NCBI RefSeq assembly: GCF_024502345.1
Contig: NZ_JALDNN010000001.1
Length of the DNA stretch: 64,000 bases
Direction: 5' to 3' (one strand)
Origin: Escherichia coli
GTDB lineage: Bacteria; Pseudomonadota; Gammaproteobacteria; Enterobacterales; Enterobacteriaceae
Program-made: the position numbers and the translations under genes
The notes under the pieces: model-generated
Seen by the model: the letters and a program-made list of their open reading frames with translations, nothing else
Databases searched by the model: none
What the model was told of the DNA's origin: nothing
Shown: positions 2,451 to 36,194 of the stretch, piece after piece
Numbering within the stretch: position 1 is the stretch's first letter
Layout: each line of letters opens with the position of its first letter

Positions 2451-3770
2451 TTAGTTGCGTTCGTACACCAGACGACCATCAACGTAGGTGCGGTAGATCG
2501 AACGGTCATCGCCCAACGTCATCATCACGAACAATTTGTCGACTAAAGAAACAGAGTTGTCATAGCGCAGCTGCTGTAGCGGAGTGGCGGTGGGTTCCAT
2601 CACCACGAAATCAGCCTCTTTGCCAGGTAAAAAGTTGCCAATCAAATCGTCAAGGCCCAGAGATTTCGCTCCGCCGAGCGTGGCCAGGTAAAACGCTTCA
2701 TATGCCGAGAGGCGATAGCCTTGTAATTGCAACACTTTGTAGGCTTCGTTCAGCGTTTGCAGCATGTTGAAAGTGGTTCCGGCACCGATATCCGTTCCCA
2801 TGCCCACTTTGACTTTCTTCTGCCATGCTTTTTTCAAGTTGAATAAGCCGCTGCCGAGGTAAAGGTTGGAGGTCGGACAGAAAGCAATGCTGGATTTGGT
2901 TTCGCTGAGACGATCCCACTCTTTTTCTTCGAGATGGACGCAGTGAGCAAAGACACAGTTTTTACCGGTCAGGCCGTACTGATGGTAAACATCCAGATAA
3001 CCATCATGGTCAGGATAAAGCGAGTTCACCCAGGCAATTTCATCTTTGTTTTCACAGAGATGGGTATGTACCCACGTATCCGGATATTCCTCTTTCAGGC
3101 GTTGCGCCATCGCCATCTGTTCAGGAGAAGAAGTAGGGGCGAAGCGTGGTGTAATCGCATATAGCAGACGACCATTTTTGTGCCAGCGTTCAATCAGTTC
3201 TTTGCTTTGGTGATAGCTGCTTTCGGCAGTGTCGAGCAGATAATCCGGTGCGTTACGGTCCATCATCACCTTACCGGCAATCATACGCATATTGATATGA
3301 CTGGCGGCTTCAAACAGCGCATCAACGGATTGCGGATGAACAGTGCCAAACACCAGCGCCGTGGTGGTTCCGTTACGTAAAAGCTGCTTGATGAAGAACG
3401 CCGACATTTCGCGGGCGTACTCTAAATCCTCATAACGCCGTTCAGTAGGGAAGGTGTGTTTATTCAACCACTCCAGCAATTGCTCACCATAGGCCCCCAC
3501 CATTTCACTTTGCGGATAATGGATATGTGTATCGACAAAGCCCGGTACTATCAGTTTGCCGCGATAGTCGCGCACGCGAATGGTGTCAGGAATTTGATGC
3601 TTTCCGTTTTCCCATTCGCCAAACCATTCCACTTTTCCCTGTTTAATGAGTAATAAACCATCCTCAATAAACCGCAGCGCAGAGGCAATCTCTTCCGGGT
3701 TATCGACCGTACGGGTGACATCAATAAAACTGCCTCGTACCGCTTTTAACGTGTGTTCTCCTGACATCAT
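2451..3770 (-). CDS. guaD: guanine deaminase
   Basis: ORF 2451..3890 trimmed to the ATGATG at 3770 ([11 protein letters not shown]...); amidohydrolase metal-binding HxH motif ([12 protein letters not shown]); 439 aa. Confidence 0.85.
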
Positions 3771-3784
3771 TGACTCCTTTACTG

Positions 3785-5185
3785 TTAATCCATCTCTTCC
3801 GCTGAGGTAATACCAGGCAGAACGTTTTCCTGTCGGTAGCCACCAGGGAGGATAATATTTAATAAAATCGCAGTTAACCCGCCAGCACAAATAGGGTTTT
3901 CAACTAATACATAAATAGAGGCTGGCAATATTTTAAAAATTTCGGGATCGTAGGAGACGCCAAGCCCTAAACCTAAAGAAGTGGCGACAATAAGTGTTTC
4001 ACGCCGCTTTAATCCGTTGGTGATGATGATGCGAATCCCAGCGATGGCAATCATGGAAAACATCAACGTCATTGCGCCTCCCAGAACTGCCGAGGGAATG
4101 GTCGTGAAGAAGCCGCCAATCATCGGAAATAAGCCGAGGATAACCAGCATTACCGCGATGGTTCGCCCGACATAACGTGAAGCGACGCCAGTCATCTGAA
4201 TAACCCCATTATTTTGCGCAAACGTGGTTAATGGTAATGAACCGACAGCGGAGGCGATAACAGAAACCAGACCATCTGCCAGCACGCCGCCTTTCAGTCG
4301 GGACTGATACTCTTCCCCCTGAATGGGGCGGCGGGAAACCATTGCCGTGGCGGTGATATCGCCGACTGCTTCCAGCACGCTAAGCAGATAAATCGTGCCA
4401 ACCACCAGGAACTGATGGAAGCTAAAACTAAAGCCGTATTTGAACGGATGCGGGATGGTGATTAACGGCAAATTGCGCATACTGCTGAAATCCACCATGC
4501 CCAGGCATAACGATGCGATATAGCCGACACATAGCCCAATGGCGATCCCTCCCATGCGTAGCAACGGACTGCGACAGCAGTTAAAGCCGATCACCACAAT
4601 TAAAACCAATAAACCAACGCCGAGATGTTCGTAATTGCCGAACGTACCGCTGCTTTTGGCTGCAAATCCTCCACCAAAATCGATAATGCCGACTTTAATC
4701 AGGCTTAAGCCGATCATCAGTACCACAATACCGCTGACGGTAGGCGTAATAACCCGACGTAAATAGGGCAAGATAAATGAAGATCCGACAACCAGAAATG
4801 CGCCAACGAAGGAGACGCCGAGAAGCGACGACATGATTAACTCTTCGTGAAAACCGTCGCTTTTCATGCTGCTGCCCAGCGCAATCATGACCGTAACAAA
4901 TGAAAAATTGACTGACTGAATTGAGAGTAGGCCAGAACCGACGATGCCGTAGCGGTTTACTTGTAACCAGGTACCAATACCAGAGGCGATCATCGCCATA
5001 GAAACAAGATAGGCGGTTGTTTCAGCGGAAAGCTGTAAGGCCGCACCCACGATTAACACGGGGGTTACCATCGGAACGAAAATTGCCAACAGATGGGTAA
5101 TGGCACCAACGAGAGCCTGATGAAAGGGAGGGCGATCCTCCAGTTCAAATATAAGGTCAGAACCTGCATGGTTTATATCAGACAT
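3785..5185 (-). CDS. xanQ: xanthine permease (NCS2 family)
   Basis: ORF 3785..5242 trimmed to internal Met (MSDINHAGSDLIFELEDRPPFHQAL...); 466 aa membrane protein. Confidence 0.85.
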   Translation of the reverse strand: MSDINHAGSDLIFELEDRPPFHQALVGAITHLLAIFVPMVTPVLIVGAALQLSAETTAYLVSMAMIASGIGTWLQVNRYGIVGSGLLSIQSVNFSFVTVMIALGSSMKSDGFHEELIMSSLLGVSFVGAFLVVGSSFILPYLRRVITPTVSGIVVLMIGLSLIKVGIIDFGGGFAAKSSGTFGNYEHLGVGLLVLIVVIGFNCCRSPLLRMGGIAIGLCVGYIASLCLGMVDFSSMRNLPLITIPHPFKYGFSFSFHQFLVVGTIYLLSVLEAVGDITATAMVSRRPIQGEEYQSRLKGGVLADGLVSVIASAVGSLPLTTFAQNNGVIQMTGVASRYVGRTIAVMLVILGLFPMIGGFFTTIPSAVLGGAMTLMFSMIAIAGIRIIITNGLKRRETLIVATSLGLGLGVSYDPEIFKILPASIYVLVENPICAGGLTAILLNIILPGGYRQENVLPGITSAEEMD

Positions 5186-5304
5186 CCCTTCACTCCTTTT
5201 AAAGTAAATTTGATCATCTGAATTAGTAAAATAAATTCCCACGAATTTGGGGCGCAGGACGCCTTGAGAACGGCTTATCTCATTTTCGCAGTCACTATTT
5301 AGTC

Positions 5305-5340
5305 ATCGTCCAAACAGAGAAACAGGCCGCCGAAGCGGCC
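5305..5340 (-). terminator. putative intrinsic terminator downstream of xdhD
   Basis: GC stem GGCCGCTTCGGCGGCC (5325..5340) followed on the minus strand by a T-rich tract (TGTTTCTCTGTTTGG). Confidence 0.4.
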
Positions 5341-5349
5341 ATTTATTAT

Positions 5350-8220
5350 TTATATCTTTTCCAGCGCGGTGAGTATTTTCTCCGGTGTGAAATGCCATTC
5401 GCGTAACCAGATGCCGCATGCATCGTGAATTGCGGTAGCAATCGCCGGAGCTGCGCCATTTACACCGATTTCCGAGATCGATTTCGCCCCGAACGGGCCG
5501 ACTTTATCGTCGCTCGGCACCAGCACTGCGCGGAAATCACGCGGAATGTCACCAATTTTCGGTGCGCCGTAGCTGCGTAAATCACGCGTTAACGGGTGAC
5601 CTTCGGCGTCATAAATGATCTCTTCGCTCATACTGTGGCCGATAGCTCGCAGGGTAGCACCGTAGATTTGTCCCAATGCTAATTCCGGGTTGACCGGTGT
5701 ACCGCAGTCCAGCAAGGCGTAGAATTTATCCAGGCGGATTTCACCCGTACGCGTGTTGACGGCAACTTCAGCGAAGTTTGCGCCATACGGGAAGGCGAAA
5801 TCAGGCGTGATATAACTGCCAGTTCCCACCAGTGAACCAAAGCCGGTGCCGGTTTCGCCTTTATGAGCAATATCCCCGAAGCTGACTTCGCCTTTCTTGC
5901 CGCGCACGACGCCCGGCGTTGCCAGTTGAACATCTGCCACTGCCTCACCCAACATTTGCGCGCCGTGGAACAGAATTTTCTCCCGCAGATTTTCCGCTGC
6001 CAAACGCGCCGCGTTACCTGAGAAGCAAGTACCGGACGAGGCATATGCGCCTTTATCAAACAACGCATGATCGGTATCACCGGAGATAACATGCACGTCC
6101 TGCGGTGGGCAGTGCAGCACTTCTGCTGCCAGTTTCGTCACTACAGTATCCAGACCAGTACCAATATCCGCACCGCCAGAATGAACGATAAAGGTGCCGT
6201 CCGATTCCAGTTTGATCATGCAGTTAGCCTGATCGATATCCGGGATACCCGATTTCTGCATGATAATGGCGACGCCGCGACCGATGTGCCAGTCACCATT
6301 TTGCGGTTTCGGTGACGACCATTGGATCATCTCGCGACCCTGACGCAGGATCTCTTCCAGTGCACAGCTGGCGGCGGAAGGAACGGAGGTCGGCGCTTTA
6401 CCTTCACCGATTGCACCGAGAATTTTCAGCTCTTGCCCTTCGTGTACCCGGTTACGTTCGATAATTTCCAGTTGGTCGATCTGTAACTGTTCAGCCAGTT
6501 CCGCTAATGCCATGGTGATAGCGAAGTTACCTTTCGGTGCGCCATAACCCTGATAAGCACCATTTGGGCAAATGTTGCTGTAGTAGGTGGTGACCTGGAA
6601 ATCGACGTTATCGCACGGATATAACGGCAGCGACAGCGCCGGTCCGTTACACGGTACGGTGAGTGAGTGGTTGCCGTAAGGGCCAGTGTTGGCGCGGAAA
6701 TCCATCTTCACTGCCGTCAGGCGACCATCTTTTTTCGCTCCCAGTTTGACGGTGACTTTCGCGACGTGACGAGAGGTGTTAGCAATAAACTCTTCTTCAC
6801 GGGTGTAGCGGAACAGGACCGGACGCCCGGTCACGCAGGTTGCCCAGGCGCACACTTCTTCCAGCAGGATGTCCTGTTTGGAACCAAAACCGCCGCCAAC
6901 TCGTTCTTTAATGACATGAACTTTATGCTGTTTCATGCCCACGAGGCGCGCGACCTGGCGGCGTAAGTGCCATGGTACCTGGGTGGAGGCGTGGATAACC
7001 AGACGATCGCCGTCCATACGAGTAAAGCAGATATGTGTTTCAGTCGGGCACTGCTGCGCTTGCGTTGAGTTATAGGTTCGCTCAATGATCACATCGGCAT
7101 CGGCAAAGCCTTTGTCCATATCGCCAATATGACCATGAATACTGGCGGCGATATTTTTGCGTGGACGAGAACCGATCGGGAAGTTGATGATCATATGCTC
7201 GCCGCGCTGGGCTGCATGGCTGTTATCGTCTTCCAGAGTATCTGGCGCACCAGCAACATACACAACCGGTTCATCGTGCACGACAGGCGCATCTTCCGCC
7301 ATTGCTTCGTCGATCGACATTACCGGTTTAAGCACTTCATATTCAACGTCGATGAGCTTCAATGCTTCAAGCGCAATTTCTTCACTTTCAGCGACGACCG
7401 CAGCAACACGATCGCCGACGTGACGCATTTTCTTGCCGAACATACGGCGGTCAAGCGGTGACGGTTCCGGTGCGCTCTGCCCCCCCGGGGTATAGTAGAT
7501 ATCCGGGCAATTCAGATGAGTAATAACGTGAACGACGCCCGGTAAGGCTTCAGCTTTGCTGACATCCAGATGAGTAATCAGTGCGTGAGCGTGTGGGCTA
7601 CGTAACATTTTAATGACGCAGGCGTCAGCCGTTACGCGGTCTTCAACATAGCAGGGCTTCGCCTGCACCATTTTTGCGGCATCAGTTTTAGGATAATGCT
7701 TACCAATGACTTCAAGGTCGTCACGGAAAGTCGGAGCGATATCAATGGTGGCCTGCGGATTATTTTTACGTGCAACCGCCAGTTCAATGACCTGATAGTA
7801 TTGTTGCCAGCCTGCATCGCGGCTGAACAAACCAGAAAGCGCGTCGTCGATCTCTTCGCGGGTAGGTGCGGCGATGCGATCGAGAAGATCGGTGATAATC
7901 AGAGCCGCAGCTGGATCGTTATAACCAGACTGCACCACGCCAACATCAACCATTGCCTGTTGAACCAGACTTAACTCGTTCCATTTGCCCAGAGATTCTG
8001 CGGTACGAATATCTGCCTTCTCTAACTGTGCGGCAATAAGCAAGGACGCGTTAACGATATTACCGTTAAAGATAATTGCGTCAGAACCGGCAAACCCGAA
8101 GCCATCATCACTGTTGCGTACAGAGTGCATTCCCATGTTAAACAACAGCTTTTGCACGTTTTCGCCTAGATTAACGGTTAGCTCCTGAGGCGCGCCATTT
8201 AAAGTAAAGTGGATGATCAT
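5350..8220 (-). CDS. xdhD: molybdopterin-dependent hydroxylase (xanthine dehydrogenase family) with N-terminal Fe-S domain
   Basis: 956 aa ORF; aldehyde oxidase/xanthine dehydrogenase molybdopterin-binding domain motifs (GGGFGSK, GTGLDTV). Confidence 0.85.
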   Translation of the reverse strand: MIIHFTLNGAPQELTVNLGENVQKLLFNMGMHSVRNSDDGFGFAGSDAIIFNGNIVNASLLIAAQLEKADIRTAESLGKWNELSLVQQAMVDVGVVQSGYNDPAAALIITDLLDRIAAPTREEIDDALSGLFSRDAGWQQYYQVIELAVARKNNPQATIDIAPTFRDDLEVIGKHYPKTDAAKMVQAKPCYVEDRVTADACVIKMLRSPHAHALITHLDVSKAEALPGVVHVITHLNCPDIYYTPGGQSAPEPSPLDRRMFGKKMRHVGDRVAAVVAESEEIALEALKLIDVEYEVLKPVMSIDEAMAEDAPVVHDEPVVYVAGAPDTLEDDNSHAAQRGEHMIINFPIGSRPRKNIAASIHGHIGDMDKGFADADVIIERTYNSTQAQQCPTETHICFTRMDGDRLVIHASTQVPWHLRRQVARLVGMKQHKVHVIKERVGGGFGSKQDILLEEVCAWATCVTGRPVLFRYTREEEFIANTSRHVAKVTVKLGAKKDGRLTAVKMDFRANTGPYGNHSLTVPCNGPALSLPLYPCDNVDFQVTTYYSNICPNGAYQGYGAPKGNFAITMALAELAEQLQIDQLEIIERNRVHEGQELKILGAIGEGKAPTSVPSAASCALEEILRQGREMIQWSSPKPQNGDWHIGRGVAIIMQKSGIPDIDQANCMIKLESDGTFIVHSGGADIGTGLDTVVTKLAAEVLHCPPQDVHVISGDTDHALFDKGAYASSGTCFSGNAARLAAENLREKILFHGAQMLGEAVADVQLATPGVVRGKKGEVSFGDIAHKGETGTGFGSLVGTGSYITPDFAFPYGANFAEVAVNTRTGEIRLDKFYALLDCGTPVNPELALGQIYGATLRAIGHSMSEEIIYDAEGHPLTRDLRSYGAPKIGDIPRDFRAVLVPSDDKVGPFGAKSISEIGVNGAAPAIATAIHDACGIWLREWHFTPEKILTALEKI

Positions 8221-30298: not shown

Positions 30299-30372
30299 GC
30301 GGGCGTAGTTCAATGGTAGAACGAGAGCTTCCCAAGCTCTATACGAGGGTTCGATTCCCTTCGCCCGCTCCA
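30299..30372 (+). tRNA. glyU: tRNA-Gly (anticodon CCC)
   Basis: 74-nt sequence GCGGGCGTAGTTCAATGGTAGAACGAGAGCTTCCCAAGCTCTATACGAGGGTTCGATTCCCTTCGCCCGCTCCA with cloverleaf and CCC anticodon. Confidence 0.95.
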
Positions 30373-30563: not shown

Positions 30564-31139
30564 GTGGTTATCTACGCTTTTAACAAACGATTGATGGAAT
30601 ATTTTATGAAAGGGAAATCTGCATTAACTCTTCTGCTCGCTGGTATATTTTCGTGCGGCACATGCCAGGCGACAGGGGCAGAAGTGACGAGTGAATCTGT
30701 ATTTAACATTCTTAATTCCACGGGGCAGCAACAGATAAAAGTTATTTATCGTTAAATCCAGATAAGTACCCTAATTATCGTCTTCTGATTCACTCAGCCA
30801 AATTAAAAAATGAAATAAAGAGCCACTATACCAAAGACGAAATTCAAGGGTTGTTAACATTAACAGAAAACACACGAAAGTTAACGTTGACGGAGAAACC
30901 CTGGGGAACATTTATTCTTGCTTCTACTTTCGAAGATGACAAAACAGCGGCAGAAACCCACTATGATGGTGTCTGGCTGAGGGATAGTTTATGGGGCTAT
31001 ATGGCATTAGTATCAGATCAGGGAAATAGTGTAGCCGCAAAAAAGGTTCTGCTCACCCTGTGGGATTATATGTCTACGCCCGACCAGATTAAGCGGATGC
31101 AGGACGTCATTAGCAACCCCAAACGACTGGATGGAGTTC
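30564..31139 (+). pseudogene. frameshifted, 3'-truncated island gene remnant (signal-peptide protein, possibly ygeP/ygeQ-like), cut by the IS3 end
   Basis: two ORFs in different frames (30564..30755 with a signal peptide; 30851..31156) in AT-rich DNA next to glyU; the second ORF runs into the IS3 terminal repeat at 31140. Confidence 0.4.
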
Positions 31140-31169
31140 TGATCCTACCCACGTAATATGGACACAGGC

Positions 31170-32036
31170 CTAAGCGAGGTTCTGGTTTTCAAATTGTTCC
31201 GGACTGAGGCCGCCACACCAACTGTGCCGCCGCCACCGATTGTAATCACATTCGATATAATTAAACACCGTTGCCCGCATTATTTCCCGGCTGATAAAGT
31301 GTTCTCCATGGATACATTCCACTTTCAGCGAATGAAAGAAGCTTTCCACGCAGGCATTATCGTAGCAGCAACCTTTTGCGCTCATACTTCCACGCAGATT
31401 ATGCCGCTTCAGTTGCGCCTGATAATCTGCTGAACAGTACTGGCCTCCACGGTCCGTGTGAACGATAACGTTCCGGGGCCTCTTACGCCGCCACAGCGCC
31501 ATCTGCAGGGCATCGCAGGCCAGTTGCGCCGTCATGCGTGGCGACATTGACCAGCCAATAACGGCACGTGACCACAGGTCAATGACCACTGCCAGATACA
31601 GCCAGCCTTCATCTGTACGTAAGTACGTGATGTCTCCTGCCCACTTCTGGTTCGGGCCACTGGCGTAAAAATCCTGCTCCAACAGATTTTCTGACACAGG
31701 CAGGCCGTGTGCGCGGTAGCTGACCGGGCTGAACTTCCGGGAGGCCTTTGCCCTCAGTCCCTGACGGCGCAGGCTTGCCGCCACGGTTTTTACGTTAAAG
31801 GGGTAACCCTGAGCACGCAGTTCATCCGTCAGGCGTGGGGCACCGTAACGCTGTTTTGACCGGGTAAAAGCCGCGAGGACAACGCTGTCGCAGTGTTGGC
31901 GGAACTGCTGACGCGTGCTTATCCTTGTCCGCCGCTGACACCACGTATACCAGCCGCTGCGGGCCACCCGGAGCACGCGGCACATTGCTTTGATGCTGAA
32001 CTCAGCCTGATGTTTTTCAATAAAGACATACTTCAT
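31170..32036 (-). CDS. insF: IS3 transposase OrfB (DDE integrase domain)
   Basis: 288 aa ORF matching IS3 InsF ([32 protein letters not shown]...). Confidence 0.9.
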
Positions 32037-32062
32037 TTCAGGCGCTTCGCGAAGTATGTCGC

Positions 32063-33283
32063 TGTAGATTCAATTGGTCAACGCAACAGTTATGTGAAAA
32101 CATGGGGTTGCGGAGGTTTTTTGAATGAGACGAACATTTACAGCAGAGGAAAAAGCCTCTGTTTTTGAACTATGGAAGAACGGAACAGGCTTCAGTGAAA
32201 TAGCGAATATCCTGGGTTCAAAACCCGGAACGATCTTCACTATGTTAAGGGATACTGGCGGCATAAAACCCCATGAGCGTAAGCGGGCTGTAGCTCACCT
32301 GACACTGTCTGAGCGCGAGGAGATACGAGCTGGTTTGTCAGCCAAAATGAGCATTCGTGCGATAGCTACTGCGCTGAATCGCAGTCCTTCGACGATCTCA
32401 CGTGAAGTTCAGCGTAATCGGGGCAGACGCTATTACAAAGCTGTTGATGCTAATAACCGAGCCAACAGAATGGCGAAAAGGCCAAAACCGTGCTTACTGG
32501 ATCAAAATTTACCATTGCGAAAGCTTGTTCTGGAAAAGCTGGAGATGAAATGGTCTCCAGAGCAAATATCAGGATGGTTAAGGCGAACAAAACCACGTCA
32601 AAAAACGCTGCGAATATCACCTGAGACAATTTATAAAACGCTGTACTTTCGTAGCCGTGAAGCGCTACACCACCTGAATATACAGCATCTGCGACGGTCG
32701 CATAGCCTTCGCCATGGCAGGCGTCATACCCGCAAAGGCGAAAGAGGTACGATTAACATAGTGAACGGAACACCAATTCACGAACGTTCCCGAAATATCG
32801 ATAACAGACGCTCTCTGGGGCATTGGGAGGGCGATTTAGTCTCAGGTACAAAAAACTCTCATATAGCCACACTTGTAGACCGAAAATCACGTTATACGAT
32901 CATCCTTAGACTCAGGGGCAAAGATTCTGTCTCAGTAAATCAGGCTCTTACCGACAAATTCCTGAGTTTACCGTCAGAACTCAGAAAATCACTGACATGG
33001 GACAGAGGAATGGAACTGGCCAGACATCTAGAATTTACTGTCAGCACCGGCGTTAAAGTTTACTTCTGCGATCCTCAGAGTCCTTGGCAGCGGGGAACAA
33101 ATGAGAACACAAATGGGCTAATTCGGCAGTACTTTCCTAAAAAGACATGTCTTGCCCAATATACTCAACATGAACTAGATCTGGTTGCTGCTCAGCTAAA
33201 CAACAGACCGAGAAAGACACTGAAGTTCAAAACACCGAAAGAGATAATTGAAAGGGGTGTTGCATTGACAGATTGAATCTACA
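32063..33283 (+). mobile_element. IS30 insertion sequence (1221 bp) with 2-bp GC target-site duplication
   Basis: terminal repeats TGTAGATTCAATTGGTCAACGC (32063) and its complement ending ...GATTGAATCTACA (33283); flanking GC at 32061..32062 and 33284..33285. Confidence 0.9.
32125..33276 (+). CDS. insI: IS30 transposase
   Basis: 383 aa ORF (MRRTFTAEEKASVFELWKNGTGFSEIANILG...), DDE transposase. Confidence 0.9.
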   Translation: MRRTFTAEEKASVFELWKNGTGFSEIANILGSKPGTIFTMLRDTGGIKPHERKRAVAHLTLSEREEIRAGLSAKMSIRAIATALNRSPSTISREVQRNRGRRYYKAVDANNRANRMAKRPKPCLLDQNLPLRKLVLEKLEMKWSPEQISGWLRRTKPRQKTLRISPETIYKTLYFRSREALHHLNIQHLRRSHSLRHGRRHTRKGERGTINIVNGTPIHERSRNIDNRRSLGHWEGDLVSGTKNSHIATLVDRKSRYTIILRLRGKDSVSVNQALTDKFLSLPSELRKSLTWDRGMELARHLEFTVSTGVKVYFCDPQSPWQRGTNENTNGLIRQYFPKKTCLAQYTQHELDLVAAQLNNRPRKTLKFKTPKEIIERGVALTD

Positions 33284-33555
33284 GCGGCCTTTTGGAGGAT
33301 AGCCAGCTCTTCATCCCGTTCTGCCAGCTGGCGTTTGAGACGTGCAATCTCGGTAGACATCTCCAGTTCACGTTCAGAAGACGTCTGCTGATTTTGCTGT
33401 TTACTGCGCCAGTTGTAGAGCTGTGATTCATACAGGCTGAGTTCACGGGCTGCGGCAGTAACACCGATGCGTTCAGCAAGCTTCAGGGCTTCACTGCGAA
33501 ATTCAGGCGAATGCTGTTTACGGGGTTTTTTACTGGTTGATACTGTTTTTGTCAT
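33284..33555 (-). pseudogene. insE: IS3 OrfA (InsE), 3'-disrupted by the IS30 insertion
   Basis: translation MTKTVSTSKKPRKQHSPEFRSEALKLAERIGV...AILQKAA, then reading continues into the IS30 end. Confidence 0.7.
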
Positions 33556-33620
33556 GTGAGTCACCTCTGACTGAGAGTTTACTCACTTAGCCGCGTGTCC
33601 ACTATTGCTGGGTAAGATCA

Positions 33621-34231
33621 TAGATGCTACGGATATCCATATCCAGAACTTCAGCAATCTGATATGGATTATAACCAGAAACCATATACCCCATTATGGT
33701 GAATTCCATCTGAGTTAATGTGTTACCTCTGGTAAATGATAAATAACGACCAATAAATAGTTGTCTGATCTTTTCATTGGCAACATCAAGACCATCATCA
33801 TTATATATGACAGCAGATATTGCTGAGTTGTGTTTTCGCCAGTAATTAGCTAACGATTGCATATTGCGGTCGCTGACTAAAACAATCCCCATGTCAGTAC
33901 TTGCAAGATAGTCAATCCAGTCTTTTTCAAGGAATAGACGTAAAAAACTTACTGAAAAATCGACAAAAATATATCCGCTTAATCTCGCATTGTGGTTTTT
34001 AGTTAAGATACCTTCTACCACACCACGATTAAAATATGAACTTTCTTCGGGCCACATACAAAAACACGAGTTTGCGCAGTACTGCAAACGCGGTGACTCT
34101 TCTGGCATTATTTGGCAATGCATTGAGCAACTATTGCATGTAAGACTTTTATAACGACTACAAAGCCCCATGTTAAGAACCTCCCTATCCGTATATAATT
34201 GCATAATTTCATTGGTGATTGATGATGTCAA
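33621..34231 (-). pseudogene. LuxR-type HTH regulator (yqeH-like), C-terminally truncated by the IS3 insertion
   Basis: ORF 33602..34231 has a GerE/LuxR-like HTH at its C-terminus (LTQMEFTIMGYMVSGYNPYQIAEVLDMDIRSI); its last 6 codons and stop are supplied by IS3 sequence. Confidence 0.5.
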
Positions 34232-34630
34232 TACACCATGATTTTGTAATTTTGCTGGGAAAAATTGCGATTAATCTGTATTTGCTATAATTCTGATTAA
34301 GACATTTTAAAATGCATTTCTCGTTATTAAATATGATTATGTTTCACTGATTTAATCTTACCTGGTTGAGGGTGGTTCAGATAACTATCTCATGGTATGA
34401 GAATATCTATATCGCAAATTGTTTTTGAATGACCAGAAGATATCTTGCGAATCTAAGTTATGCATCTTAAATGGTCTTATTTAAGATGTTCAGATCTCTT
34501 TGTGTGTTTAACTAACTGATAATACTAGGATATGATGAGAGAAGTGATAGGGCGGAATAATAACGAATGAACATTATGAAAACTGGAATGGTTCAAAATT
34601 GTAGCAATTTTGAACCATTCACAATGGATA

Positions 34631-34864
34631 TCAGCTAAAGAACATTACCGATACGCACAGGATACCCACGATCAGCGTAATCAGATTTCCGATGGAACGC
34701 CAGGGTTTAAGCGCCGGGATCAGATACGTTGACAACGTAGGCATGATGAAAAGTATCATGGCAATGAGCGGGCCGCTGATCGCGTAAATCATCGAAATCG
34801 CGTTCGGGTTAATGCAACAAACAATGAAGGTGATCAGCGATACCAACATAATTGATAGTGCGCG
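34631..34864 (-). pseudogene. 3' fragment of a membrane transporter gene (yqeG-like), 5' part replaced by the IS903-family element
   Basis: 78 codons of hydrophobic C-terminal sequence ending at a stop codon; the reading frame upstream runs straight into the IS terminal repeat. Confidence 0.5.
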
Positions 34865-35922
34865 GGGCTTTGTTGAATAAATCGAACTTTTGCTGAGTTG
34901 AAGGATCAGATCACGTATCTTCCCGACAACGCAGACCGTTCCGTGGCAAAGCAAAAGTTCAAAATCACCAACTGGCCCACCTACAATAAAGCCCTCATCA
35001 ACCGTGGCTCCATAACTTTCTGGCTGGATGATGAAGCTATTCAGGCCTGGTATGAGTCAGCAACACCTTCTTCACGAGGCAGACCTCAGCGCTATTCTGA
35101 CCTTGCCATCACGACTGTGCTGGTCATTAAACGCGTATTCAGGCTGACCCTGCGCGCTGCGCAGGGCTTTATTGATTCCATTTTTTCTCTGATGAACGTT
35201 CCGCTACGCTGCCCGGATTACAGCTGTGTCAGCAGGCGGGCAAAGTCGGTTAATGTCAGTTTCAAAACGCCCACCCGGGGTGAAATCGCACACCTGGTAA
35301 TTGATTCCACCGGGCTGAAGGTCTTCGGTGAAGGCGAGTGGAAAGTCAAAAAGCATGGCCAGGAACGCCGCCGTATCTGGCGTAAGCTGCATCTCGCCGT
35401 TGACAGTAAAACACATGAAATCATCTGCGCTGACCTGTCGCTGAACAACGTTACGGACTCAGAGGCCTTCCCCGGGTTAATCCGGCAAACCCACCGGAAA
35501 ATCAGGTCAGCCGCCGCCGATGGCGCTTACGATACCCGGCTATGTCACGATGAACTGCGGCGTAAGAAAATCAGCGCGCTTATCCCTCCCCGAAAAGGTG
35601 CGGGTTACTGGCCCGGTGAATATGCAGACCGTAACCGTGCAGTGGCTAATCAGCGAATGACCGGGAGTAATGCGCGGTGGAAATGGACAACAGATTACAA
35701 CCGTCGCTCGATAGCGGAAACGGCGATGTACCGGGTAAAACAGCTGTTCGGGGGTTCACTGACACTGCGTGACTACGATGGTCAGGTTGCAGAGGCTATG
35801 GCCCTGGTACGAGCGCTGAACAAAATGACGAAAGCAGGTATGCCTGAAAGCGTGCGTATTGCCTGAAAACACAACCCGCTACGGGGGAGACTTACCCGAA
35901 ATCTGATTTATTCAACAAAGCC
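34865..35922 (+). mobile_element. IS903-group (IS5 family) insertion sequence, 1058 bp, no target-site duplication
   Basis: 18-bp terminal inverted repeats GGCTTTGTTGAATAAATC at both ends (34865 and, as complement, ending 35922); flanking 9-mers differ (TAGTGGCGG vs CATTCTTCT). Confidence 0.9.
34898..35866 (+). CDS. IS903-family DDE transposase
   Basis: 322 aa ORF containing ...AADGAYDTRLCHDELRRKKISALIPPRKGAGYWPGEY...; the true start may be an internal Met. Confidence 0.85.
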   Translation: MKDQITYLPDNADRSVAKQKFKITNWPTYNKALINRGSITFWLDDEAIQAWYESATPSSRGRPQRYSDLAITTVLVIKRVFRLTLRAAQGFIDSIFSLMNVPLRCPDYSCVSRRAKSVNVSFKTPTRGEIAHLVIDSTGLKVFGEGEWKVKKHGQERRRIWRKLHLAVDSKTHEIICADLSLNNVTDSEAFPGLIRQTHRKIRSAAADGAYDTRLCHDELRRKKISALIPPRKGAGYWPGEYADRNRAVANQRMTGSNARWKWTTDYNRRSIAETAMYRVKQLFGGSLTLRDYDGQVAEAMALVRALNKMTKAGMPESVRIA

Positions 35923-35942
35923 CATTCTTCTTACTTTTATGA

Positions 35943-35966
35943 CCCTGCCGCATGGCAGGGTTTTTT
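35943..35966 (+). terminator. intrinsic terminator, presumably the remnant 3' end of the deleted upstream gene (kduD in the reference arrangement)
   Basis: stem CCCTGCCGCATGGCAGGG followed by TTTTTT, 20 bp after the IS right end. Confidence 0.5.
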
Positions 35967-36133
35967 ATATCTGTAGATCATCATAATCCATATCATGGTT
36001 ATGAAATAATCCATATCAATTATCAATTAATGAACTTTATGAATTTTATCTGCTGTAAAATTAGGTGATTAATAATAATATCAATAATTCAACTTAATTT
36101 GAAAATTGGAATATCCATCACATAACGACATGT

Positions 36134-36194
36134 CGTAGCAATTTAATCCATATTTATGCTGTTTCCGACCTGACACCTGTGTGAGTTGTTCACG
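36134..36194 (+). promoter_or_regulatory. araE promoter region with AraC-type and CRP-type binding sites
   Basis: TAGCAATTTAATCCATA resembles the araI1 half-site TAGCATTTTTATCCATA; TGTGAGTTGTTCACG matches the CRP consensus TGTGA-N6-TCACA; 40 to 100 bp upstream of araE. Confidence 0.45.

Follow-up and report, generated by a model that had tools for sequence, protein, structure and literature searches.

IS30 nested in the IS3 of a widespread ETT2 deletion allele of Escherichia coli

The ETT2 type III secretion island of Escherichia coli adjoins glyU, its chromosomal landmark, and has ygeQ and yqeH as its two edge genes. Mutational attrition of ETT2 was reportedly described by Ren and colleagues in 2004. 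In E. coli the island next to glyU has commonly been lost, either for the most part or entirely, and only remnants are left in all four 'safe' laboratory strains (PMC3032704). The locus analysed here shares this general history of loss beside glyU, whereas the K-12 remnant is different and smaller, with an IS2. The closest known relative is the deletion allele of REL606 (ECB_RS14260/14255/14245), BL21 and E. coli C, in which an uninterrupted IS3 stands between truncated ygeQ and yqeH. A second precedent is the presence of IS30 in the 3' part of orfA of IS3-family elements in K-12, as in IS911A::IS30A (insN interrupted by insI1) and IS911B/IS600::IS30D; that IS30A interrupts IS911 has been stated in the literature (PMC9333248).

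We analysed a 64,000-nucleotide stretch of E. coli DNA (contig NZ_JALDNN010000001.1; 'the window'), which has the REL606/BL21/E. coli C allele. Its junctions are base-identical to those of the laboratory strains, its IS3 is 100% identical, including a G that marks the resident copy (see below), and the gene order on the actS/glyU side is unchanged. It differs from them in that an IS30 interrupts the IS3 and in an IS903B-bounded loss of yqeG–kduD next door. That neighbouring IS903B junction had no match in our collection of 5,426 complete E. coli genomes, and an IS903B found near yqeH in AHM9C68I is an unrelated insertion.

The composite element and its flanks

The IS3 lies on the minus strand, spans 31140–33620 and, read directly from the sequence, is split by IS30 into two segments. 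The distal segment (IS3 nt 336–1258; 31140–32062) contains IRR, orfB and the left GC copy, and the proximal segment (IS3 nt 1–335; 33286–33620) contains IRL and the 5' 90% of orfA. Their 923 and 335 bp give an IS3 of 1258 bp which, with the 1221 bp of IS30 and a 2-bp duplication, makes 2481 bp; the nested insertion and the lengths first read from the sequence alone are thus exact to the base. Taking out IS30 and a single GC leaves 1258 bp that align gap-free and at 100% identity with the IS3 annotated in REL606, which occupies the same two junctions. The terminal repeats (TGATCCTACC... and ...GGGTAAGATCA) therefore cannot be placed otherwise, and alternative placement of the ends was rejected. 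Both the length and the inverted repeats, which begin TG and end CA, are those of the IS3 family. Within the distal segment orfB (31170–32036, minus strand; 288 aa in the open reading frame list) is intact and uncoupled from orfA, whose frame now continues into IS30 to form a 122-aa ORF (33196–33564).

IS30 occupies 32063–33283 on the plus strand, as located by repeat search and by a copy on plasmid pPEC422_4 that matches it at every nucleotide and bears the RefSeq annotation IS30. The window's 383-aa transposase frame (32125–33276, plus strand) is uninterrupted, and identical DNA in L008 is annotated WP_001254932.1. The GC duplication that had been noticed at both IS30 ends is present at 32061–32062 and 33284–33285, where the uninterrupted IS3 has a single GC. 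The length of 1221 bp, inverted repeats of ∼26 bp, a single 383-aa frame and a 2-bp duplication are all as expected of IS30, which is itself still intact.

On the left, glyU (tRNA-Gly(CCC), 30299–30372, plus strand; ARAGORN, the Rfam tRNA model and the annotation of the syntenic locus) is followed by ygeQ' (30594–31139, plus strand), the 5' fragment of a GH15-family island gene. This fragment maps to the REL606 ygeQ pseudogene and to the GH15 gene of O157:H7 strain 8368, is truncated at ...GGAGTTC and has an internal frameshift near 30750. On the right, alignment with K-12 yqeH (b2846) identifies a LuxR-type regulator, 'yqeH (33621–34171, minus strand), that keeps codons 1–183 of 210 and has lost its 3' 82 nt. 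The sequence-only reading was right that both flanking genes are truncated, but not about where they start: ygeQ' begins at 30594 or, alternatively, 30606 rather than 30851, and yqeH at 34171 rather than 34231.

The element is flanked as GAGTTC/IS3/TAGATG, so that TTC faces TAG (or GTTC faces TAGA); a search for a 3- or 4-bp direct repeat around the window IS3 found none, in agreement with what had been noted at first. Control insertions of IS3 in other genomes do have target repeats (GTA, TAT, TTAT). The identity of the element as IS3 is unaffected by the absent duplication.

The position 31184 (composite position 45) distinguishes this IS3 from others. The G found there is shared only by the same-locus IS3 of REL606 and USMARC-49610, and eight other IS3 copies that we compared have T. 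As far as these copies go, G at 31184 appears to be a private marker of the resident IS3.

The ETT2 deletion allele and its IS-free derivatives

The missing target duplication is accounted for by the spacing of the flanks in reference genomes, where ygeQ and yqeH are 26 kb apart: 26,058 bp separate them in O157:H7 strain 8368, whose ETT2 is intact, and 10,207 bp in K-12. This supports the suggestion, made from the sequence alone, of an IS3-associated deletion of island DNA; an element left by adjacent deletion or recombination lacks direct repeats (review, PMC9330008). The left junction (...GGATGGAGTTC/TGATCC) occurs in 190 of the 5,426 genomes and the right junction (GATCA/TAGATGCTACGG) in 201. 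The two are combined with an uninterrupted IS3 in ∼190–200 of the 5,426, including E. coli B (REL606, BL21) and E. coli C, and the window thus has the junctions of the E. coli B-type ETT2 deletion allele on both sides. That the allele is widespread and present in sequenced laboratory strains had been missed by the sequence-only reading.

We propose that an event dependent on IS3, in an ancestor that the window has in common with E. coli B and C, would have deleted ∼26 kb, almost the whole of ETT2, with one breakpoint within ygeQ and the other 82 nt short of the 3' end of yqeH, leaving one IS3 and no target duplication. The route would have been either intramolecular attack by an IS3 at one breakpoint or recombination between two directly oriented IS3 copies, which the sequence cannot distinguish. 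Chimeric queries joining an IS3 end to the intact ygeQ continuation, or the intact yqeH 3' end to an IS3 end, gave no exact-site match in the collection; no genome there combines an IS3 at TTC with a ygeQ that is otherwise intact, or an IS3 at TAG with an intact yqeH. Because no such intermediate was found, the mechanism is one that we infer. The IS3 insertions in yqeI, yqeH and ygeH that this search returned are unrelated. From its ancestor the deletion allele would have spread to its present ∼3.5% of complete E. coli genomes.

In 13 genomes of the collection ygeQ' is joined to 'yqeH without any IS3. Contiguity of the two fragments in IS-free relatives had been named in advance as an observation that would speak against an IS3-associated deletion, and on its face it favours a different history, in which ETT2 was deleted without any IS and IS3 inserted later into the existing junction. 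The details of the joins make that history very improbable. The joins take three forms, from which 4, 6 or 8 bp of genuine ygeQ/yqeH sequence are missing, and each of these scars sits on 2–4 bp of microhomology, as would be predicted if an element without flanking repeats had been lost. Since the IS3 allele retains the authentic flank bases that the scars miss, the scars derive from it. To judge from these sequences, then, the IS-free junctions are secondary losses of IS3 and not the ancestral state, and although contiguous fragments were literally found, they do not overturn the deletion. A later insertion of IS3 should also have left a 3–4 bp duplication, as simple insertions do.

The strains concerned point in the same direction. 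Shiga toxin-producing E. coli of serogroup O121 seem to account for ten of the 13 IS-free genomes: six bear the label O121 or O121:H19, and four unlabelled ones match at 100%. Nakamura and colleagues are said to have described, in 2022, an active IS-excision enhancer in this O121 group. On the basis of serotype, we therefore consider that IEE may have been involved in forming the scars. They resemble the products of nearly precise IS excision in that all three remove IS3 with 4–8 bp between 2–4-bp microhomologies, although they lie in other genomes and not in the window. The scars match the deletions at microhomologies of 2–4 bp that a preprint describes for the loss of copy-out-paste-in elements (bioRxiv 10.1101/2023.06.07.543989).

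IS30 position and the IS3 frameshift window

The −1 frameshift heptamer of IS3, C_CAA_AAG, was read from the sequence at 33289–33295 (minus strand), its identity being taken from published work (PMC5009743). IS30 lies 5 nt downstream of it, the duplicated dinucleotide being nt 4–5 after the heptamer. Folding of the RNA of the intact REL606 IS3 predicts a stem-loop, GACAUACUUC...GAAGUAUGUC (32025–32060, minus strand in the window), that starts 6 nt past the slippery heptamer; IS30 directly precedes its 10-bp stem and now parts it from the heptamer. By analogy with published work on IS3, this stem-loop may be a stimulator of frameshifting. The overall fold of the region is no better than that of shuffled sequences (z = −0.97), the local stem alone being clear, and Rfam scans of the intact IS3 and of the window matched no frameshift-element family. 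The heptamer and the intact orfB give the two-frame organization of IS3, and RefSeq labels the identical uninterrupted copy 'programmed frameshift'.

With orfA and orfB physically separated, the OrfAB fusion transposase should no longer be makeable. The arrangement of heptamer, stem and reading frames supports by inference the view, reached at first from the position of IS30 in the 3' part of orfA, that its insertion abolished OrfAB. The further description of this IS3 as immobile is apt in that no fusion transposase is expected, but the element is better termed non-autonomous: both IS3 ends are intact, and mobilization in trans is therefore possible in principle. IS3-family transposases have a strong cis preference (PMC5009743).

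The IS30 position is recurrent. The exact IS3::IS30 junction occurs in 33 of the 5,426 genomes, at no fewer than four other loci among those inspected and also on plasmids, and strain 1368KP has IS30 at the same IS3 dinucleotide in the opposite orientation. The same register is found in IS911A::IS30A of K-12, in the IS600 and IS911B flanks of IS30D and in an IS600-like element of E. coli C. In the K-12 IS911 case IS30 is likewise 5 nt past the heptamer with a 2-bp duplication (AAAAAAGGCT(AC) in IS911, CCAAAAGGCC(GC) in IS3); the host element and the relative orientation differ, however, and the K-12 host IS911 copies are also truncated. IS3::IS30 copies differ in the left duplicate, which reads GC, AC or GT. 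IS30 strand transfer leaves mismatched junction bases that are processed by host repair (PMC9333248), which would allow these variants to be separate insertion events; point mutation would also explain them.

That the position is probably not random had escaped the sequence-only reading. No IS30 end adjoining the insertion site was found by inverted-repeat search, which excludes an insertion targeted to an IS30 inverted repeat. IS30 has a known preference for hot-spot sequences, with a near-palindromic 24-bp consensus and insertion at the central 2 bp, and it is most likely this preference that dictated the insertion point. The IS3 site has a half-site, A-run-G-N4–5, in common with the lambda LHS, ydbA and IS911/IS600 sites. 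Scored with a weight matrix derived from the other five half-sites, the actual IS3 site comes first among 2,492 positions by a small margin (7.98 vs 7.41 bits), whereas with a matrix limited to the two sites outside IS elements (ydbA and lambda LHS) it comes only 159th of 2,492, and that matrix is uninformative. The argument is partly circular, since most sites used for comparison are frameshift windows, homologous to this one, in related elements. We offer only tentatively, as something rather less probable than its opposite, the idea that the sequence of the programmed-frameshift window in IS3-family elements (slippery A-run-G plus 3 nt, then a 2-bp staggered cut) makes it a preferred target of IS30.

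Order of events and significance

Our preferred overall account, with a probability of about 0.88, is that mobile elements acted on the glyU/ETT2 locus in three successive steps. IS3 preceded IS30, since these IS3 junctions occur with no IS30 in ∼200 genomes, and IS30 stands at the ygeQ'–IS3–'yqeH locus in none of the 5,426. In the lineage of the window, IS30 would then have inserted into the resident IS3, between the heptamer and the stem, with its GC duplication.

How IS30 reached the resident IS3 admits another answer, which we regard as unlikely: it may have been copied by recombination or gene conversion from an IS3::IS30 elsewhere in the genome. Identical composites do exist at several other loci and on plasmids in the 33 genomes mentioned. 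No IS3::IS30 copy examined has a target duplication of its own, so that IS3 copies clearly recombine, and the hybrid IS30 flanks in LD22-1 and CFT073 reflect recombination between IS30 copies in different IS3-family elements. The window nevertheless keeps G at 31184, and all three other full-length composites inspected have T; a gene-conversion tract would consequently have had to stop within ∼880 bp on that side. Independent insertion at the same dinucleotide does occur, moreover, as 1368KP and the shared register in other IS3-family elements show. Transposition of the whole 2481-bp composite as a unit, by IS3 transposase from another copy, is in keeping with the intact IS3 ends and the several loci, but is effectively refuted by the uninterrupted IS3 at the same junctions in ∼200 genomes, by the G common to the window and the uninterrupted same-locus copies and by the absence of a target duplication from every composite copy examined.

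On its own the finding carries little weight. It concerns IS history at ETT2, a locus already known for decay, and seems to be ordinary mobile-element history that is largely known, with the recurrent IS30 spot in IS3-type elements as the exception. The deletion allele is nevertheless the one present in the most used laboratory and production strains, BL21, REL606 and E. coli C, and its exact junctions, combined with the private G and the three scars of excision, provide a lineage marker for the ETT2-null allele. The scars also illustrate the outcome when an IS3 without flanking repeats is excised.

The recurrence of IS30 at one position within the frameshift windows of the IS3 family yields a hypothesis that is cheap to test. 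If the hot spot is real, it would aid the annotation of nested elements and explain the frequency of IS30 in IS911 and IS3 remnants. The fusion transposases of one IS family (IS3, IS911, IS600 and relatives) would then be disabled systematically by another, and IS3-family copies inactivated by IS30 would build up, serving as fixed landmarks and recombination substrates. If it is also undescribed, it would offer a simple and testable example of targeted interference between insertion sequences.

Anatomy of the nested element and its effect on IS3

The window is a stretch of E. coli chromosome surrounding the tRNA-Gly(CCC) gene glyU (30299-30372). Its IS3 occupies 31140 (TGATCCTACC...) to 33620 (...GGGTAAGATCA) of the minus strand. 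IS30 lies inside it on the plus strand (32063-33283; 1221 bp), its terminal inverted repeats having been located twice independently, and is bounded on both sides by a GC duplication (32061-62 and 33284-85). The IS30 transposase frame (32125-33276; 383 aa) and IS3 orfB (31170-32036; 288 aa) are intact, while the orfA frame runs on into IS30 among the window ORFs. Once IS30 and one GC are taken out, the remaining 1258 bp align ungapped and at 100% identity to the IS3 that RefSeq annotates in E. coli B REL606. No further copy of IS3 or IS30 was found within the 64-kb window. Sequence reading and slicing of 30700-34400 show that the nested anatomy proposed in the sequence-only reading was exact.

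In the IS3 orientation, the insertion site reads CTC CAA AAG GCC [GC] GAC ATA CTT CGC GAA G, where C_CAA_AAG is the published −1 frameshift heptamer of IS3 (PMC5009743). IS30 is located 5 nt past this heptamer, the duplicated GC being nt 4-5 after it, and RNA folding places the start of a 10-bp stem (GACAUACUUC...GAAGUAUGUC) directly after the insertion point. The insertion thus disrupts the fusion frame and parts the slippery site from its downstream structure, so that OrfAB should no longer be makeable, which supports the proposed loss of the fusion transposase. The same reading described this IS3 as immobile; because both of its ends are intact, ‘non-autonomous’ is more accurate, although trans-complementation of IS3-family elements is inefficient (about 200-fold lower for IS911; PMC5009743).

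An old IS3-bounded deletion of ETT2

The sequence runs ...GGATGGAGTTC up to the left end of IS3 and resumes with TAGATGCTACGG... past its right end, with no 3- or 4-bp repeat shared by the two flanks, whereas control simple IS3 insertions in other genomes have repeats (GTA, TAT and TTAT); the lack of a matching target duplication is thus borne out. To the left is ygeQ′, a GH15-family gene fragment (30594-31139) that keeps the 5′ 546 nt and has an internal frameshift, and to the right ′yqeH, a LuxR-type regulator (33621-34171, minus strand) that keeps codons 1-183 of 210. The two genes form the outer edges of the ETT2 type III secretion island. In the complete island of O157:H7 strain 8368, 26,058 bp separate the two breakpoints, against 10,207 bp in K-12, which has a different ETT2 remnant, with IS2; the proposal of an IS3-associated deletion of island DNA was therefore correct. 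The frame of ygeQ′ shifts between ORFs 30564-30755 and 30851-31156 (window 30740-30860), and the gene was therefore decaying before its truncation or decayed afterwards. The homologous ygeQ fragment has a RefSeq frameshift flag in O121 and ETEC6, and none in REL606.

Among 5,426 complete genomes of E. coli, 190 carry the left junction (ygeQ′-IS3) and 201 the right (IS3-′yqeH); REL606, E. coli C, and BL21 with its derivatives are among the carriers. Every junction-bearing genome inspected has an unbroken IS3 whose annotation includes the programmed frameshift. The deletion is old and widespread.

We give roughly equal weight to two routes by which it may have arisen. An IS3 already at one breakpoint could have made an intramolecular attack; or an IS3 in ygeQ could have undergone RecA-dependent recombination with a second, directly oriented copy in yqeH. 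The product is in both cases a single IS3 with unmatched flanks, and a review describes both routes as leaving no direct repeats around the element (PMC9330008). A chimeric query of the 5,426 genomes found no intermediates of either route, and did show ETT2 to be an island into which IS3 has inserted repeatedly. In strain PM4-5, yqeI carries an independent IS3 insertion with a GTA duplication (L010 4893-6150). In MB7671, the 5′ part of yqeH carries an IS3 with a TTAT duplication and a further IS3 truncates ygeH (L011 1-864 and 6642-7899).

Contiguous flanks in IS-free relatives, which the sequence-only reading had set against such a deletion, do literally exist: ygeQ′ is joined directly to ′yqeH without IS3 in 13 genomes, but as scars of three forms that derive from the IS3 allele. 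Ten genomes, apparently of O121 Shiga toxin-producing E. coli (STEC; the records label six of them O121 or O121:H19), have GTTC joined to TGCTACGG, having lost IS3 and 4 bp at a TG microhomology; 20AR0300 has GGATGGA joined to GATGC (IS3 and 6 bp; AG); and ETEC6 and YJ6 have ACTGGATG joined to GATGC (IS3 and 8 bp; GATG). The scars lie at 4290-4310 of L004 (O121 RM8352) and around 590-600 of L020, L021 and L022. The bases absent from them are present in the IS3-bearing allele, where they match authentic ygeQ and yqeH, and the scars can therefore be derived only from that allele. The three are independent of one another. They are of the same type as the deletions at 2-4 bp microhomologies reported for copy-out-paste-in elements and for the IS-excision enhancer (bioRxiv 10.1101/2023.06.07.543989). 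Such scars are the expected mode of loss for an element without a flanking repeat. The IS-excision enhancer is reportedly active in O121:H19 (a 2022 paper listed in that preprint's bibliography), and it may have been involved in these IS3 losses.

A second IS-bounded deletion lies 1.2 kb from the IS3-bounded one. IS903B (34866-35922; 1057 bp, ends GGCTTTGTTGAATAAATCG; flanks 34631-34865 and 35923-36180) lacks a 9-bp target duplication (AGTGCGCGG versus CATTCTTCT) and, relative to REL606 and PM4-5, stands in place of 4,347 bp comprising the 5′ 995 nt of yqeG together with yqeF, kduI and kduD, and so brings the yqeG 3′ end up to the region upstream of araE, a junction that was present in none of the 5,426 genomes.

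Arrival of IS30 in the resident IS3

A G at 31184 is common to the window, REL606 and USMARC-49610, the base being T in eight IS3 copies at other loci; the window thus carries the same resident IS3 copy. IS30 was not found at the ygeQ′-IS3-′yqeH locus in any of the 5,426 complete genomes, which makes its insertion the latest event and one confined to the lineage of this strain. What the window shows is a nested insertion of an ordinary kind upon a known, widespread IS3-bounded ETT2 deletion allele that annotated E. coli B and E. coli C genomes already contain; the sole novelty is that IS30 has struck this copy.

Alternatively, this IS3 might have received IS30 by gene conversion, with a further IS3::IS30 copy of the genome as donor. 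Such copies do recombine, as the hybrid IS30 flanks in LD22-1 (L017) and CFT073 (L016) indicate, and recombination between IS30 copies is implied by several that have flanks from two different IS3-family elements. Conversion is nevertheless unlikely here, because the window IS3 retains the resident G and because independent insertion at this IS3 dinucleotide is demonstrably possible. All three other full-length composites examined (3001-5481 in each of L006, L007 and L008) are likewise without a target duplication of IS3 and border on truncated genes (AbiH/rspA, dgcT/ACP S-malonyltransferase and plasmid genes); IS30 seems to be borne preferentially by old IS3 copies that lie at rearrangement junctions.

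Recurrent IS30 position in IS3-family frameshift windows

Exactly this IS3::IS30 junction is present in 33 genomes; those inspected place it at four or more other loci (Qin/rspA, dgcT/ycdU and two plasmids). The duplication differs in its left copy (GC, AC or GT). Since IS30 strand transfer yields mismatched junction bases that are processed by host repair (PMC9333248), these variants could be separate events, the alternative being point mutation.

In 1368KP (L018), an oppositely oriented IS30 occupies the same IS3 dinucleotide and has duplicated GC perfectly. Among the K-12 copies compared (L013 1542-2762 and L015 1960-3180), IS30A interrupts IS911A at AAAAAAGGCT[AC], and IS30D is flanked by IS600 (AAAAAAAGCA[AC]) and IS911B; an IS600-like element of E. 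coli C (L019) bears IS30 at AAAAAAAGCC[GC]. All these IS911, IS600, IS600-like and IS3 cases have the slippery heptamer, 3 nt and then the 2-bp duplication, with both orientations seen. The non-IS sites in ydbA (TAATAAAGGTA[CT]) and lambda LHS (AATAAAAGTGGCGA) have an A-run followed by G at a similar distance. A weight matrix from five other sites, most of them homologous to the test site, put the true site in IS3 at the top of 2,492 positions by a small margin; a matrix from the two non-IS sites alone ranked it 159 and was uninformative.

On plasmid pOkiPb01697_1 (L009 5323 onward), the IRL end of an IS3::IS30 composite adjoins the interior of another IS3. This join (...GATCA to AAGTATGTCGCGGCC) is 9 nt from an uninterrupted IS30 target site, placing an IS3-in-IS3 beside the same hot spot.

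A preference of IS30 for hot spots is established (PMC9333248), and its position in IS3 is probably non-random. We read these data as a coincidence of one such hot spot with the frameshift windows of IS3-family elements, and it is this apparent targeting of those windows by IS30 that we consider worth carrying forward.
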